Of a DNA stretch of 64,000 nt, positions 11,903 to 58,935 are shown one piece after another; the first letter of the stretch is position 1, and each line of letters starts with the position of its first letter. The notes under the pieces were generated by a model. It was not told the DNA's origin and did no database searches. It saw only the letters and a program-made list of their open reading frames with translations. Source of the DNA: a phage; sequence record PZ402305.1. One strand, 5' to 3'. Both the position numbers and the translations under genes were made by a program.

Positions 11903-12259
11903 ATGAAAAAATTAATCTTAGCCACATTGCTGGCTACCGTAAGCTTCACCACTTACGCTCAAAAATTTGTAGCAGTTAAAACAGATATTGGTAAAGATGT
12001 TGTGATCACAGGCAACAAGTTTTACTATACACCTGGAAATGGTGTTCTAGAAGAGTGTAAAGATGTTGAGGCATATACAGGAAAAGAAGATAACACGGAA
12101 CGTCCTTTTTATTCGATTATAGCCACTTGCAAAAATGAAATAGTAGCTATTAAACAGTATAAAGATGCCCCTGGAGGAGAATACTTATTAGTCAAGAATA
12201 TTAAGAGTGAAAAAACTGCAAAGTTTACAGTAATTATTTTAAAAGGAGAAACGTTCTAA
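11903..12259 (+). CDS. secreted protein with signal peptide
   Basis: MKKLILATLLATVSFTTYAQ signal-peptide-like N-terminus; GGAGGGAAG upstream. Confidence 0.6.
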   Translation: MKKLILATLLATVSFTTYAQKFVAVKTDIGKDVVITGNKFYYTPGNGVLEECKDVEAYTGKEDNTERPFYSIIATCKNEIVAIKQYKDAPGGEYLLVKNIKSEKTAKFTVIILKGETF

Positions 12260-13398
12260 TGAAATACACTATTTTTGGAGATGTGGCTGTTGTAAATAAG
12301 GAATATGGTGTTGAAGCTAATAAACTTCCTGCTGGAGTTTGGGTTGTCAACTGCGATCCGCACGGTAACTACTCTTTAGTGCGTGGCGAAAGTTTCTCTC
12401 TTCCGAACACTCTTTATGGGGAAACTAAAGACCGCGCCGCACATGTTATTAAAACATTTGCTCGTCGTAGTAAAGAAGGTAAAAATACTGGGGTGTTACT
12501 GACAGGCACAAAAGGCAGTGGTAAGACGATGTTAGCTAAACTAATTAGCATGTCCCTAATGTCCACAGAAGGTTTAGGTATTCCAACCATTTTGGTTACA
12601 CAGCCTTACACAGATGCTGGCTTCTTAGAATTTATGAGTAAAATTACAGATCGTGCTGTTGTTTTATTTGACGAATTTGATAAAGTGTACGCTAAGAAAG
12701 AAGATCAGGAAGCACTGTTGACCTTGTTGGATGGAACAGGAAGTGGGAATAAACTTTACATCCTAACTAAAAATAGTGGTTATATCTCGGAATATTTTGT
12801 AAACCGTCCTAGTCGTATCTATTACAGTTTCAATTACGATAAACTGTCTAGTGAAACTATGTTAGATTACTTGGATAAGAACTTGGTAAATAAAAAACAC
12901 GTAGATAACTTCCAACGTTTATGGGATGTTAGCACAGAGTTGTCTTTCGATGTTATTCAAGGTATTGTAGAAGAATTGAATTTCTATCCAAAAATGACTT
13001 TTAAAGAATGTCTTGAAATGATGGGTATTTCTTTAGGCAACGATGCTAAATGGAATGTGGCTTCTATCGTAGCTAATGGCAAAACGCTGAAGGTGAATTG
13101 GATCAATAACTGGCACGACTTCACCCCTACTAAGTTTTTGTCGGGTGCTTGTTCCCTGAACATCTATCTACAAAGTTTGAAAGATGATGAAGTGGAAGCA
13201 ATGGAAACCAACAGTTATGTTATCCTGGATGAAGATGGTGATCCACATATTGATCTATGTGCAACGGCTGATGGTCTAACTTGTGATCTGATTGAAGGTG
13301 GTAAGATTCTGGTTATGAGCACTACACCAGGAAACACTCTGCGAGTGGTGCTGGAGCCTGTAACACAACGTTCCACTACCCTGGGTAGCGTATTCTGA
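12259..13398 (+). CDS. AAA+ family ATPase
   Basis: Walker A LLTGTKGSGKTMLAK; Walker B VVLFDEFDK. Confidence 0.7.
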   Translation: MKYTIFGDVAVVNKEYGVEANKLPAGVWVVNCDPHGNYSLVRGESFSLPNTLYGETKDRAAHVIKTFARRSKEGKNTGVLLTGTKGSGKTMLAKLISMSLMSTEGLGIPTILVTQPYTDAGFLEFMSKITDRAVVLFDEFDKVYAKKEDQEALLTLLDGTGSGNKLYILTKNSGYISEYFVNRPSRIYYSFNYDKLSSETMLDYLDKNLVNKKHVDNFQRLWDVSTELSFDVIQGIVEELNFYPKMTFKECLEMMGISLGNDAKWNVASIVANGKTLKVNWINNWHDFTPTKFLSGACSLNIYLQSLKDDEVEAMETNSYVILDEDGDPHIDLCATADGLTCDLIEGGKILVMSTTPGNTLRVVLEPVTQRSTTLGSVF

Positions 13399-13437: not shown

Positions 13438-13476
13438 TATATTGATTTCAGTTTAACAGGGAGATAATTGTTAGAT

Positions 13477-14466
13477 ATGCCAGTAAAGAAGAGTATTGAA
13501 CAATATATTGAAGAGTGTCAACCTATTGCTGCTGCTAAAGGGATTGAGATTATTGGAATTGTTGAGCCGTTTACAGGACAACACACGAAAATGATCAATC
13601 GTTGTCAGTATGCTCATGAATGGAACACTACAACATTTAAAAACTTTAAAACTGGTCGTGCTGGTTGTCCTGTCTGTGCAATTGGGAAAGGATTTGGGAA
13701 AGGAGGTAAGACAGACGATCAGCACATAAAAGATTTCATTAACACAGGAAAGTTTAAACCTGGTACCATTTTCACCAATACAGGCAAACGTAAAGGGAGT
13801 CATATTCTCTGGATGGTTGAATGTCCTGTTTGTTCTCATGATGAATACGTACAAGCAGGAGTGTGTGATGGTAAATTTTACATTGCAGGGAACGATCTTA
13901 AAAAAGGGATTATCCCTTGTCGTTGTACTAGAGTTTACCGTTATACAAAAGATCAGATCACTTACAAGGTGAGAAAAGGTTTAGAAAGTAAAGGATATAT
14001 CTGGATAGAGTGGATTAGTAAACCTTCCTCAACAGGAGAGTTTAAATATGGATGTAAGGATCACGGGGAGCAAATAGGGAATGCTGACCACTTATTACAT
14101 AAGGGGCGTGGTTGTCCGAAGTGTAAAGGGCATACACAACAACAGGCATACATCAACTATATCTACGATGAACAAAATCTTCTCTGTGCTTTGAAGTTTG
14201 GTATTGCCAATAGTAGTGATCGCCGTATCAAAGAACAAAATAGTCATAATGTGTTTACTATGAAACAGAGCCAAGTGTGGCACTTCCCTACTGTGAAGCA
14301 ATGCAAAGATGCAGAAAAGCGTTGTAAGCGTGTCCTTCACACGGAAGCAGTGAGCAAATATTCTATGCCAGATGGCTACACAGAAACAGTAGAGTTATCT
14401 TGCATGGCCTCAATACAAAACATTTATAAACTTTATGGTGGAACATTACAGGAGGAAACATGTTAG
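13477..14466 (+). CDS. Cys-rich putative multi-zinc-ribbon protein
   Basis: Repeated CPVC/CPxC/GRGCPKCKG pairs; start moved to ATG at 13477. Confidence 0.6.
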   Translation: MPVKKSIEQYIEECQPIAAAKGIEIIGIVEPFTGQHTKMINRCQYAHEWNTTTFKNFKTGRAGCPVCAIGKGFGKGGKTDDQHIKDFINTGKFKPGTIFTNTGKRKGSHILWMVECPVCSHDEYVQAGVCDGKFYIAGNDLKKGIIPCRCTRVYRYTKDQITYKVRKGLESKGYIWIEWISKPSSTGEFKYGCKDHGEQIGNADHLLHKGRGCPKCKGHTQQQAYINYIYDEQNLLCALKFGIANSSDRRIKEQNSHNVFTMKQSQVWHFPTVKQCKDAEKRCKRVLHTEAVSKYSMPDGYTETVELSCMASIQNIYKLYGGTLQEETC

Positions 14467-55959: not shown

Positions 55960-55986
55960 TAAGAAATGCCCCCGAAGGGGCAGTTT
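55960..55986 (-). terminator. Hairpin terminator
   Basis: Reverse complement GCCCCTTCGGGGGCATTTCTT. Confidence 0.45.
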
Positions 55987-55987
55987 G

Positions 55988-56680
55988 TTAAATAGCGGTT
56001 CCTTCGAAATCCGCCACATTTACGAGATTAATATTTTCAGATTTAGAAGTCAAGTTGTTTTCTGCAACAGATTTTTCTTCAGTATCCGCCTCGTTACCTG
56101 CCACGTTACGAGGTTCTTCTTCACCGTAGGGATTACCGAATTTCAAAAGATTGATCAATTCTTCTTTGGAGAAGTTTTCTAAATCATCGTCTGTTAATTC
56201 AATAATCTCGTCTTGTTCTTCAATAAATGTTTCACCACCAGAAAAAGCATCTCGCTTTTTAGCTACTTCCATAGCCTGTTCTGGTGTTGCCCCTGCATCA
56301 AGAGCAGCTAAAGCAAAGTCTGACCCACTCCCTACTGCATAATATTCTTCATCAATCGGATATGCACGTGTTGGGTTGTTACCCTCGTGCAGGAAAATAC
56401 GTCCGTCTGGATGAACAACAAGTGCAATAAACTCTTCATCTTCTTTGTCTGGATCAGAGTGAATCATCAAACCAGGGACAGCATCACGTGCTGCTTCGCA
56501 CTGTAGATTTTGTTCAAACCATTGAAAGAAAGAAAGCACGGAGGTCAGACGACCAGCACCACCTACAAGGTAATCTCCAATTTTTCGGACCTTTTTGAAA
56601 TTAATAGAATCTACACGTCCACCAAAAGTTACCTTACCGTCACTCAAAATCTTATTTTTGGTTGCAATAATTGTCGTCAC
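55988..56680 (-). CDS. HslV-like Ntn-hydrolase peptidase with acidic C-terminal extension
   Basis: N-terminal MTTIIATK (Thr nucleophile at +2 as in HslV MTTIVSV), GGR, YAVGSGSDFALAA (HslV GSGG box). Confidence 0.7.
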   Translation of the reverse strand: MTTIIATKNKILSDGKVTFGGRVDSINFKKVRKIGDYLVGGAGRLTSVLSFFQWFEQNLQCEAARDAVPGLMIHSDPDKEDEEFIALVVHPDGRIFLHEGNNPTRAYPIDEEYYAVGSGSDFALAALDAGATPEQAMEVAKKRDAFSGGETFIEEQDEIIELTDDDLENFSKEELINLLKFGNPYGEEEPRNVAGNEADTEEKSVAENNLTSKSENINLVNVADFEGTAI

Positions 56681-57183
56681 TATTCTTCCTCCTCTGTTAA
56701 TGTTTTAAGAACCGCTTTCCCGCCATTCACATATTTGCAGATGTATTCTATCGCACGTAGTGTCTCTTTGTCAACAAAAATTTGATCAGACGTTGCGAGC
56801 GGGTTATTAAGAAGATCACTGCAATCACGAACAAGCAGTGCTTTCTTATTAAACAAATTACTTAAGAACAGTAACTTCGCCTCTTCTTCTGTTATGTGCA
56901 GAAGGCTAGGATCGGAGCCAGCTATTCCTATTATACAATCAAACAAGCTTTCTTTACTATCAGAAAGTTCTTGAAAATGGTTTAAAAGCCAATCTTCTCC
57001 TAGACACCAACATTTAAACATTTCCAGCTTATCTCGGAGGGTCATATTCTCTAAAGTAAGAGCAATCTCTTTTTCAATATGGTTTACACAAATTTGACGA
57101 AATTCGTTAGGTTTTACGAGTCCCGTTTGATAGCACTCATCTATACCGCTTCTTCCGATAGCTATTGTTGCTACACCCATCAA
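56680..57183 (-). CDS. hypothetical protein (167 aa)
   Basis: Track ORF. Confidence 0.6.
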   Translation of the reverse strand: MMGVATIAIGRSGIDECYQTGLVKPNEFRQICVNHIEKEIALTLENMTLRDKLEMFKCWCLGEDWLLNHFQELSDSKESLFDCIIGIAGSDPSLLHITEEEAKLLFLSNLFNKKALLVRDCSDLLNNPLATSDQIFVDKETLRAIEYICKYVNGGKAVLKTLTEEEE

Positions 57184-57215
57184 TCCTCCTTATAAATGGC
57201 TTCCCTGCCATGTTA

Positions 57216-57974
57216 TTAAATAAACACTTCAGTAATCAGTTTAGACAAACGTCCACGTTTATTATCGTCCGTTGTCAGTTCAACGTATCCAATAAAATCT
57301 ACAATTGGCTCACGAACACCTTCTTCATTTTCTGGATATAAAAGTTCCAAAATTTGATGCAGACCATTGCTACGTTTTTTAATTGCATATGTCTGGCGAA
57401 CATCGCCTAATACAATAACATGCGTATTAATACCTGCACGTTCAATAAGAAGTTTAAGTGTTTCTGTTGACATAAGTTGTGCTTCGTCAATAATGACGAT
57501 TGTATTATCCAGGGTGGCCCCCAACAAATAGTTAGGAATATTCAATTCGATCTTACCTGATCCAATATCGTTTTCCAATTTGTTGGCTGTCATGAATTGC
57601 TGGAAAATACGTTTTGTAGATTCATAGTGTGCTGCTAGTTTATCTGTTTTATCTCCAGACAAGAAACCAATCTGGTCATCTCCGACTTCAGTAGGGTTCT
57701 TGATAAAAAGTAGTTTACGGAAGTCTCCTGAACGAAGCATCTGCAAAGCTTTCCATAAAGCAACAGAGGTTTTACCAGTCCCTGCCGGAGCATTTACAAC
57801 AGTCAGATCATTCCAAATCATGCTTTGAACAATCTTATTTTGGTCCCCTTCAGGCATAAATTCATCTAAACGGTAATCGTCATTACCTACCGCTTTTGCT
57901 GCATAACGGCTTTCAATCTTTGCTGAATTAGCCAGTTTCTGCCGTTGTGTTTTAGCTGCGGTTTTATTTCCCAT
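57216..57974 (-). CDS. phoH: PhoH-like ATPase
   Basis: Walker A NAPAGTGKTSVA, Walker B IVIIDEAQ; start moved to ATG after AAGGAG, downstream of hairpin. Confidence 0.8.
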   Translation of the reverse strand: MGNKTAAKTQRQKLANSAKIESRYAAKAVGNDDYRLDEFMPEGDQNKIVQSMIWNDLTVVNAPAGTGKTSVALWKALQMLRSGDFRKLLFIKNPTEVGDDQIGFLSGDKTDKLAAHYESTKRIFQQFMTANKLENDIGSGKIELNIPNYLLGATLDNTIVIIDEAQLMSTETLKLLIERAGINTHVIVLGDVRQTYAIKKRSNGLHQILELLYPENEEGVREPIVDFIGYVELTTDDNKRGRLSKLITEVFI

Positions 57975-57984
57975 AGTAGCACTC

Positions 57985-58010
57985 CTTTTAGAAGGGGCCG
58001 AAGCCCCTTT
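57985..58010. other. GC hairpin between lysozyme and phoH
   Basis: GAAGGGGCCGAAGCCCCTT; U-tract only on plus-strand side. Confidence 0.4.
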
Positions 58011-58674: not shown

Positions 58675-58935
58675 TTACTCCGCAATTTGAGCCATGAGAT
58701 CACGCAGTTCGGTAAAACCGCCTACGTATGTTACCTCCCCGTTCACTTCGGACAGAATTTGTGGAAATGTGCGTGGAGGAACTCCGGTAAGATCAACAAC
58801 TGTTTTAGTCATTGATTCTAAATCATAGTCTTGATCAAGACTTAAATATTCAAACTGTTTATTGCGCATGGTTAATAGTTGTTTTGACATTTCACAAAAT
58901 TGACAGTTAGGTTTACCAAAAATTACAAATTCCAT
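58675..58935 (-). CDS. Glutaredoxin/thioredoxin-like protein (NrdC-like)
   Basis: N-terminal FGKPNCQFCEMSK (CxxC active site), C-terminal GGFTELRDL; near nrdB. Confidence 0.7.
   Translation of the reverse strand: MEFVIFGKPNCQFCEMSKQLLTMRNKQFEYLSLDQDYDLESMTKTVVDLTGVPPRTFPQILSEVNGEVTYVGGFTELRDLMAQIAE

Follow-up and report, generated by a model that had tools for sequence, protein, structure and literature searches.

How would a phage use a homologue of the peptidase HslV when no gene for its AAA+ unfoldase, HslU, lies beside it? The question is raised by a gene on the minus strand (positions 55988-56680) of phage sequence record PZ402305.1, of which a stretch of 64,000 nucleotides, hereafter the window, was analyzed. 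The answer we favor, with a probability of about 0.6, is that the gene encodes a catalytically competent N-terminal nucleophile (Ntn) peptidase of the PPH/RPC type that acts without an AAA+ unfoldase. The window belongs to a phAPEC8-like coliphage and is 99.5-100% identical to Phapecoctavirus genomes (100% to Escherichia phage SKA64, 99.5% to phAPEC8), and RefSeq as well as several GenBank records name the gene 'peptidase HslV family', 'ATP-dependent protease subunit HslV' or 'putative 20S proteasome'. Its HslV-like nature is not new at the level of annotation, and the clade was described bioinformatically in 2021; new here are the assignment to a clade without helix H2, the argument from a lost docking pocket, a two-part and always acidic tail, and the association of this tail with a PhoH-like gene.

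The gene and its parts are as follows:
55988..56680, minus strand: coding sequence of a probable PPH-type proteasome-like threonine peptidase (230 aa, GTG start, TAA stop)
56216..56680, minus strand: catalytic Ntn-hydrolase core, residues 1-155 (predicted local confidence, pLDDT, above 90 for most; catalytic residues invariant in the 83 aligned phage-family sequences)
56120..56215, minus strand: proximal tail, residues 156-187 (conserved motif; two short predicted helices)
55988..56119, minus strand: distal tail, residues 188-230 plus stop (disordered, acidic, weakly conserved sequence)

Catalytic core, family membership and the lost HslU pocket

An initial sequence-only reading of this DNA had placed the open reading frame at the same positions, with an MTT start and a GSGS box, all of which stands: the protein begins M-T-T-I-I-A-T-K (codons GTG-ACT-ACC) and the box occupies residues 117-120. 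That reading had also recognized the Ntn-hydrolase fold of HslV and proteasome beta subunits, and this is borne out by structure prediction and by database searches. An AlphaFold2 monomer model of the peptidase, built on 61 sequences, and Foldseek comparisons, which return a probability of 1.00 to HslV, BPH and archaeal and eukaryotic 20S beta subunits, together describe an alpha-beta-beta-alpha sandwich. The PHROG family phrog_1040 ('peptidase HslV family') matches residues 1-229 (E=1.6e-63), Pfam PF00227 scores 25.6 bits against a cutoff of 22.4 bits, and the best sequence relatives with solved structures are HslV proteins (Thermotoga maritima HslV, 1m4y, E=4.9e-9).

The active site was assessed in an alignment of the query, 82 homologues and Escherichia coli HslV (taken from the K-12 genome), in which counts out of 83 refer to the phage-family sequences. 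Thr1, Asp17, Lys33 and the Gly-Ser-Gly loop (Ser129-equivalent) are invariant in 83/83, so that no member has lost the Thr nucleophile or another catalytic residue, a point on which the sequence-only reading had hinged. In precursor numbering Thr2 is the mature Thr1, Asp14 and Lys30 correspond to HslV Asp17 and Lys33, and the loop is Gly117-Ser118-Gly119. Nearly all peptidases in 80 additional viral loci start (M/V/L)-T-T, and E. coli hslV also opens GTG-Thr-Thr; in both proteins Met is followed directly by Thr with no propeptide, as is typical of HslV from Gram-negative bacteria. Judged by these residues, the phage peptidase is predicted to be catalytically intact.

Outside the active site, the phage proteins share three differences from E. 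coli HslV, to which the peptidase is ~27% identical over 157 aa: the first hairpin is 4 residues shorter, the H2 segment is shortened and Pro/Gly-rich, and 9 residues are deleted between H3 and H4. In the model, H1 spans residues 45-67, H3 residues 120-128 and H4 residues 133-143, while residues 68-83, at the site of H2 in HslV, form a Pro/Gly-rich coil, and helix H2 is absent from the predicted structure. According to Fuchs, Alva and Lupas (2021, PMC8665760), PPH/RPC alone 'lacks the second helix (H2)', with H1, H3 and H4 kept. Because of the loss of H2, the phage origin and the homology to PPH-sized phage proteins, and with PPH and RPC compared by description only, we consider that the peptidase probably belongs to the phage PPH/RPC clade, a distant offshoot of HslV, and is not an HslV orthologue. 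The label HslV-like of the sequence-only reading does not extend to HslV proper: besides lacking H2 in the model, the protein scores only 31.4 and 32.2 bits with the NCBIfam HslV equivalogs TIGR03692 and NF003964, against cutoffs of 157.75 and 137, respectively.

Relatives at E<=1e-3 numbered 2,334 in an exhaustive search, viral structure models gave 46 fold matches, and 234 phage records carry relatives of the peptidase. The family spans phages of Caulobacter, Rhizobium, Rhodobacter, Vibrio and Aeromonas, all with the same deletions relative to HslV. Proteins of 131-156 aa from Caulobacter, Rhizobium and Rhodobacter phages match the peptidase with E values of ~1e-8 to 1e-15; among the models of BFVD, a viral structure library, the core superposes best on 131-146-aa Caulobacter phage proteins (TMt 0.80-0.89). 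A literature search found mention of the phage homologues at the level of annotation and no functional study of any of them. One relative recorded as bacterial, on a 425-bp contig of 'Lysobacteraceae bacterium JHOS43' (L093, JAPMLR010000072.1), is 100% identical to residues 68-208 of the coliphage peptidase, and this contig is almost certainly a phage contaminant of a bacterial draft assembly.

Two tandem proteasome-like genes are found in Aeromonas phage 2L372D (L007, 2932-3483 and 3501-4385) and also in the Aeromonas phage loci L031 and L033. The upstream copy, of 183 aa, starts MTC, keeps Asp17 and Lys33, carries Gly-Cys-Gly in place of Gly-Ser-Gly and retains HslV-like H2 and H3-H4 segments; a tailed PPH-type copy of 294 aa follows directly. 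The pair may represent a two-subunit arrangement.

Activation of HslV involves the C-terminal tails of HslU, which enter pockets between HslV subunits, and in the Haemophilus influenzae HslUV structure the terminal carboxylate of the tail is bound by Lys28. Other residues of the HslV pocket are Phe54, Phe57, Gln114 and Ala79/Lys80 (PMC6429459). Of these six positions (Lys28, Phe54, Phe57, Ala79, Lys80 and Gln114) the phage family keeps one, Phe57. None of the 83 sequences has Lys at position 28, where Gln, Ser, Asp or Thr is found instead; Phe54 is replaced by Leu and Gln114 by Pro, and the equivalents of Ala79 and Lys80 fall within the H2-less coil. Since H2, itself part of the pocket, is missing from the model, since five of the six positions are changed, and since the altered surface is common to phages of very different hosts, docking of the peptidase on E. 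coli HslU appears unlikely, which speaks against the suggestion of the sequence-only reading that it may pair with host HslU.

The acidic tail and the PhoH-like neighbor

The core is followed by a tail that the sequence-only reading had correctly described as acidic and had underestimated at ~60 aa: it comprises 75 aa (residues 156-230), 20 of them acidic and 5 basic, with a net charge of -15 and an isoelectric point of 4.05. Its proximal part carries the motif E-[IL]-T-x-[ED]-x-L-x-x-[FLM]-[ST]-[KR]-E-[EQ]-L-[IL]-x-[LM]-[LI]-x-x-G and two predicted helices (residues 164-169 and 172-181, pLDDT about 86-88), with a mean top-residue frequency of 0.70 as against 0.87 in the core. A hidden Markov model (HMM) of the motif matches 64 of 81 relatives of at least 190 aa as against 5 of 144 shorter ones, and the motif is kept in Vibrio and Aeromonas phage proteins with only ~36% core identity. 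The distal part has pLDDT values below 50 for residues 189-220, a top-residue frequency of 0.29 and 38% gaps. A net negative charge is common to all 74 family tails that reach 30 aa (median charge -12); in the distal tail it is the charge that appears to be conserved and not the sequence. Relatives can have the distal part replaced by longer, unrelated domains, giving proteins of up to 379 aa in total, which Pfam does not recognize, and a tail is absent altogether from the relatives farthest from the query, those in phages of Caulobacter, Rhizobium and Rhodobacter.

Several explanations for the tail were tried and not upheld. A docking tag shared with other phage proteins was dismissed, as the motif HMM matches no other phage open reading frame. 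Mimicry of the HslU activating tail EDLSRFIL by the C-terminus ADFEGTAI was dismissed as well, as the last residues are not conserved outside the genus and conservation of the distal tail is low. A SAP/HeH/Rho_N domain is not supported, the query tail having no Pfam match; one distant long-tailed relative gives a sub-threshold SAP match (E=0.017, 15.2 bits against 23.9). The extreme C-termini of the long-tailed relatives L029, L030, L031, L034 and L035 resemble SAP/HeH (helix-extension-helix) nucleic-acid-binding motifs, e.g. LPDLKRYADLLGVKFPHNIGQETLAQKL, but the tail of the query itself lacks such a motif.

A search for an unfoldase returned no candidate of the expected kind. With E. coli HslU as the query, tblastn at E<=10 left both the window and the complete phAPEC8 genome (147.7 kb) without a match, and in a viral sample of 80 related loci, covering 1.09 Mb with at most 10 kb of flank per side, none had HslU, ClpX, Lon or ClpP at E<=1e-3 (0/80). 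Five contigs labeled with Pfam families, four with upstream flank and the fifth (L121) at a contig end, contain no AAA+ family. The statement of the sequence-only reading that no HslU or other AAA+ partner adjoins the gene thus holds, and for HslU it extends to the whole phAPEC8 genome, but it overlooked a P-loop ATPase of the PhoH type two genes upstream:
56680..57180, minus strand: translationally coupled upstream gene (166 aa from the ATG at 57180; phrog_14834; all-alpha)
57216..57974, minus strand: PhoH-like P-loop ATPase (252 aa from the ATG at 57974), two genes upstream of the peptidase

For both genes the start given by the longest open reading frame is wrong; the start codons are ATG at 57974 for phoH, where an AAGGAG site precedes it, and ATG at 57180 for the upstream gene. 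The record OM362897 (SKA64, 100% identical) labels the PhoH-like gene 'CRISPR-associated helicase'. Matches of PhoH to the PADLOC models for Cas3, Nhi and AbiO are weak and reflect generic P-loop similarity (E ~1e-6), and no PADLOC defense or counter-defense model matches the peptidase.

The only AAA-family gene of the phage, gp014 (window 12259-13395, plus strand; PF00004, 29.9 bits; phrog_2376), has homologues in myoviruses of Enterococcus, Bacillus and Staphylococcus, and some of these homologues carry the annotation clamp loader. It was considered as the missing unfoldase and rejected, being 43 kb away, found in other phages and in 0/80 of the viral loci, and weakly similar to clamp loaders. 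The gene after it (window 13468-14463, plus strand), annotated 'endonuclease', has CapR-homology repeats and a treble-clef zinc finger, and by its distribution the pair is unrelated to the peptidase. A scan of bacterial genomes yielded weak stand-alone homologues (25-30% identity) with neither HslU nor PhoH nearby; these loci, being without hslU, failed as RPC contexts and as a positive control for HslU detection.

Association with PhoH follows the tail. A phoH gene lies within 3.5 kb of the peptidase in 25/25 loci with a tailed peptidase (at least 193 aa) and in 0/55 tail-less loci, and in the most distant tailed loci (L034, L035, L036 and L006) no gene of the 64-kb window other than PhoH and the peptidase has a homologue. 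The intervening genes in these distant loci differ, the order of the two is inverted in L036, and in Vibrio phage 1.193.O (L006) the main spacer between them is an inserted transposase. The latter, encoded at L006 2267-3367 (NVP1193O_018) and annotated 'coil containing protein', is an IS-type transposase (phrog_506, E=3.6e-97) and constitutes a mobile-element insertion inside a lytic phage genome. The 166-aa gene co-occurs with the peptidase only within the rV5/phi92-like supergroup.

A natural deletion bears on the same three genes. Relative to phi92 (L005), phage VEcB (NC_052663, L011, locus 2165-2968) has lost 1,121 bp, so that the 5' part of phoH continues in frame into the peptidase gene at about codon 63; the deletion removes the N-terminal third of the peptidase including Thr1, the whole middle gene and the 3' part of phoH, and RefSeq still names the resulting 267-aa chimera 'peptidase HslV family'. 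VEcB is a natural triple knockout in a viable phage, and because it was isolated and propagated despite the deletion, the peptidase gene, the middle gene and phoH all seem to be accessory in laboratory growth.

The strict linkage, its persistence through insertion and inversion, and the joint loss in VEcB would fit a module of PhoH and the peptidase, possibly with the coupled 166-aa protein, in which the tail helix docks and which carries out non-AAA+ ATP-dependent degradation or RNA-protein remodeling. PhoH domains do assemble into hexameric rings around a central pore, but the activity demonstrated for them is the unwinding of single-stranded RNA, not the unfolding of proteins (PMC7390352). 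Moreover, the tailed proteins are one clade, in which the correlation may reflect inherited gene order; within the rV5/phi92-like supergroup, where the whole block of glutaredoxin, lysozyme, PhoH, intervening gene and peptidase is syntenic, the linkage is plainly inherited synteny. PhoH also evolves slowly and is easier to detect than other neighbors. A functional module is, on balance, a rather improbable alternative. Its most explicit form, in which a ring of tailed peptidase is docked by the tail helix on a PhoH ring to give a two-component machine, seems unlikely, and we are equally doubtful of the activities it would imply, namely an ATP-dependent protease with a non-AAA+ (SF1/RecA-like) motor or a device that both strips proteins from RNA and degrades them.

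Expression context, proposed mechanism and remaining alternatives

The signals around the gene are as follows:
56688..56694, minus strand: Shine-Dalgarno sequence GAGGAGG, 7 nt before the peptidase GTG (read from sequence)
56745..56774, minus strand: sigma-70-like promoter match TTGACA-18-TAGAAT (11/12), within the upstream gene, ~65 nt before the peptidase start
55967..55982, minus strand: terminator-like hairpin UGCCCC-UUCG-GGGGCA followed by UUUCUU, 5 nt after the peptidase stop (z = -3.2)

The GTG of the peptidase shares 1 nt with the TAG stop of the 166-aa gene (TAGTG), an arrangement typical of translational coupling and indicating that the two genes may be coupled. The promoter is only a consensus match of patchy conservation. 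A hairpin is also found at the position after the peptidase in relatives, with different stem sequences. Similar small GC-rich hairpins occupy other gaps of the minus-strand operon (57991-58010 and ~57196-57212, besides 55967-55982), two of the three having UUCG tetraloops, and the idea that hairpins bracket a cassette of PhoH, intervening gene and peptidase was rejected, as they occur in each of the gaps checked (lysozyme/phoH, phoH/upstream gene and post-peptidase).

The operon itself is long and contains, besides the peptidase, genes for ribonucleotide reductase, thymidylate synthase, dTDP-rhamnose synthesis, glutaredoxin, lysozyme, PhoH and the 166-aa protein; its functions are those of early/middle nucleotide metabolism. 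The dTDP-rhamnose-type set (reductase/epimerase, 3,5-epimerase, thymidylyltransferase and a dehydratase-like protein) extends from window position 58935 to about 62000 on the minus strand, directly upstream of the glutaredoxin-lysozyme-PhoH-peptidase block. In the relative L119, two dTDP-rhamnose-type genes are instead directly downstream of the peptidase.

In the mechanism that we propose, the peptidase would be translated from its GTG start in coupling with the upstream gene, as part of this early/middle operon. It is established enzymology that methionine aminopeptidase cleaves off an initiator Met that precedes Thr; the penultimate Thr being small, the host enzyme would be expected to remove Met from the phage protein and expose Thr1 without a propeptide, as in E. 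coli HslV. Thr1, Asp17, Lys33 and the Gly-Ser-Gly loop would then form a proteasome-type active site. The enzyme would work without an AAA+ unfoldase, because the phage encodes none and because the HslU-docking surface (H2 and the C-tail pocket) is gone; of the two options offered by the sequence-only reading, acting alone would on these grounds be the better one. Substrates would be peptides, or proteins that are unfolded or specifically recruited. The 75-aa extension would serve as an accessory module composed of an amphipathic helical motif and a disordered polyanionic end, the conserved motif being most likely a docking or regulatory element.

Several considerations weigh against this proposal. 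The term peptidase is itself deduced from conserved residues, and to our knowledge the characterized stand-alone relatives BPH and Anbu show little or no peptidase activity; connectase, another relative, is a ligase. The literature yields no biochemical data for any PPH or RPC protein, and the references for PPH (WP_042125023.1) and RPC (WP_140207863) entered the comparison by description. The judgment that the pocket is lost is based on the alignment and on a model of the monomer, not of a complex. Highly divergent ATPases would escape the tblastn screen, whose bacterial positive control lacked hslU. Finally, given the constant PhoH neighbor, the statement that there is no ATPase partner is not strictly true.

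About as improbable as a PhoH module is that the same Thr1 chemistry serves a specific processing enzyme, a connectase-like ligase/transpeptidase, or an amidohydrolase whose substrate is not a protein. Non-proteases such as connectase occur in the Ntn superfamily and in the proteasome-like family, and the missing H2 together with the extra tail may preclude a closed double-ring chamber, as has been suggested for some homologues (PMC8665760); a stand-alone enzyme without an unfoldase would also fit. Yet the closest matches in sequence and structure are the proteolytic HslV and proteasome beta subunits, the full proteasome-type catalytic set including the Gly-Ser-Gly loop is kept, and no ligase-specific feature was identified.

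Quite improbable is a hijacker of host HslU, in which HslV-like rings dock E. coli HslU and redirect or titrate the unfoldase. The peptidase is a relative of HslV, its host encodes HslU, and the equivalents of Arg35 and Glu61 are conserved along with Phe57. This is outweighed by the pocket, in which Lys28 is never Lys and H2 and five of six positions are lost, by the deletion of the Arg86 segment, and by equivalog scores far under the cutoffs; deletions shared by phages of diverse hosts are, in addition, not what tuning to the HslU of one host would produce. A role in virion (prohead) maturation or as another protease of the structural module is highly improbable, for although phages commonly encode head-maturation proteases, this gene is located outside the head module, in a nucleotide-metabolism operon (ribonucleotide reductase, thymidylate synthase, glutaredoxin, PhoH), the portal gene is directly followed by a separate protease of the XkdF-type S78 kind (PF14550), and VEcB is viable without the N-terminal third of the peptidase and its Thr1. 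That separate protease is gp117 of phAPEC8 (NC_020079, 66487-66966; L003, 16487-16966; PF14550, Peptidase_S78_2 (XkdF), 44.9 bits), which RefSeq names 'DNA methyltransferase' and which is probably a mis-annotated prohead protease.

Comparison with known proteasome-like systems

Taken as an unfoldase-independent PPH/RPC peptidase, the protein would exemplify proteasome-like peptidases without unfoldases that are widespread in phages, and membership in PPH/RPC and not in HslV gives little reason to expect stimulation by HslU. The anatomy of the tail and its strict association with PhoH in the sampled loci point to candidate constructs and partners. The gene phoH is very common in viruses and widely used as a marker; if the link to PhoH is true, it would provide the first mechanistic context for viral phoH, and if it is not functional, the peptidase would be an ordinary, already annotated and probably dispensable accessory gene.

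HslV (ClpQ) shares with the peptidase the fold, the Met-Thr-Thr start without a propeptide and the catalytic residues, and provides its best match among solved structures; it differs in having H2, the pocket for the HslU tail and a partner gene hslU, and in lacking an acidic tail. HslV assembles as a dodecamer from two hexameric rings, and its proteolysis is stimulated by ATP and HslU. BPH (PDB 5ovs/5ovt) and Anbu are, like the peptidase, stand-alone proteasome homologues without a known ATPase partner, and their Foldseek E values equal those of HslV (~4e-10). They are, however, bacterial, keep both helix pairs and have no acidic tail; BPH forms heptameric double rings, and the overlap of BPH and Anbu with the peptidase model (TMt 0.52-0.55) is lower than that of HslV (0.65-0.69).

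The closest correspondence is with PPH and RPC, which have the same compact HslV-derived core with Thr1, Asp17 and Lys33, lack H2 and stand alone with no ATPase, PPH being also phage-encoded and RPC also having a C-terminal extension. With a 155-aa core and a 75-aa tail, the 230-aa peptidase is nearer in length to the description of RPC than to PPH (~140 aa), yet RPC has been reported only from Proteobacteria and not from phages, whereas the peptidase is a phage protein. The motif of its tail, the invariably acidic character of the tail and the linkage to PhoH are not among the features given for PPH and RPC in PMC8665760.

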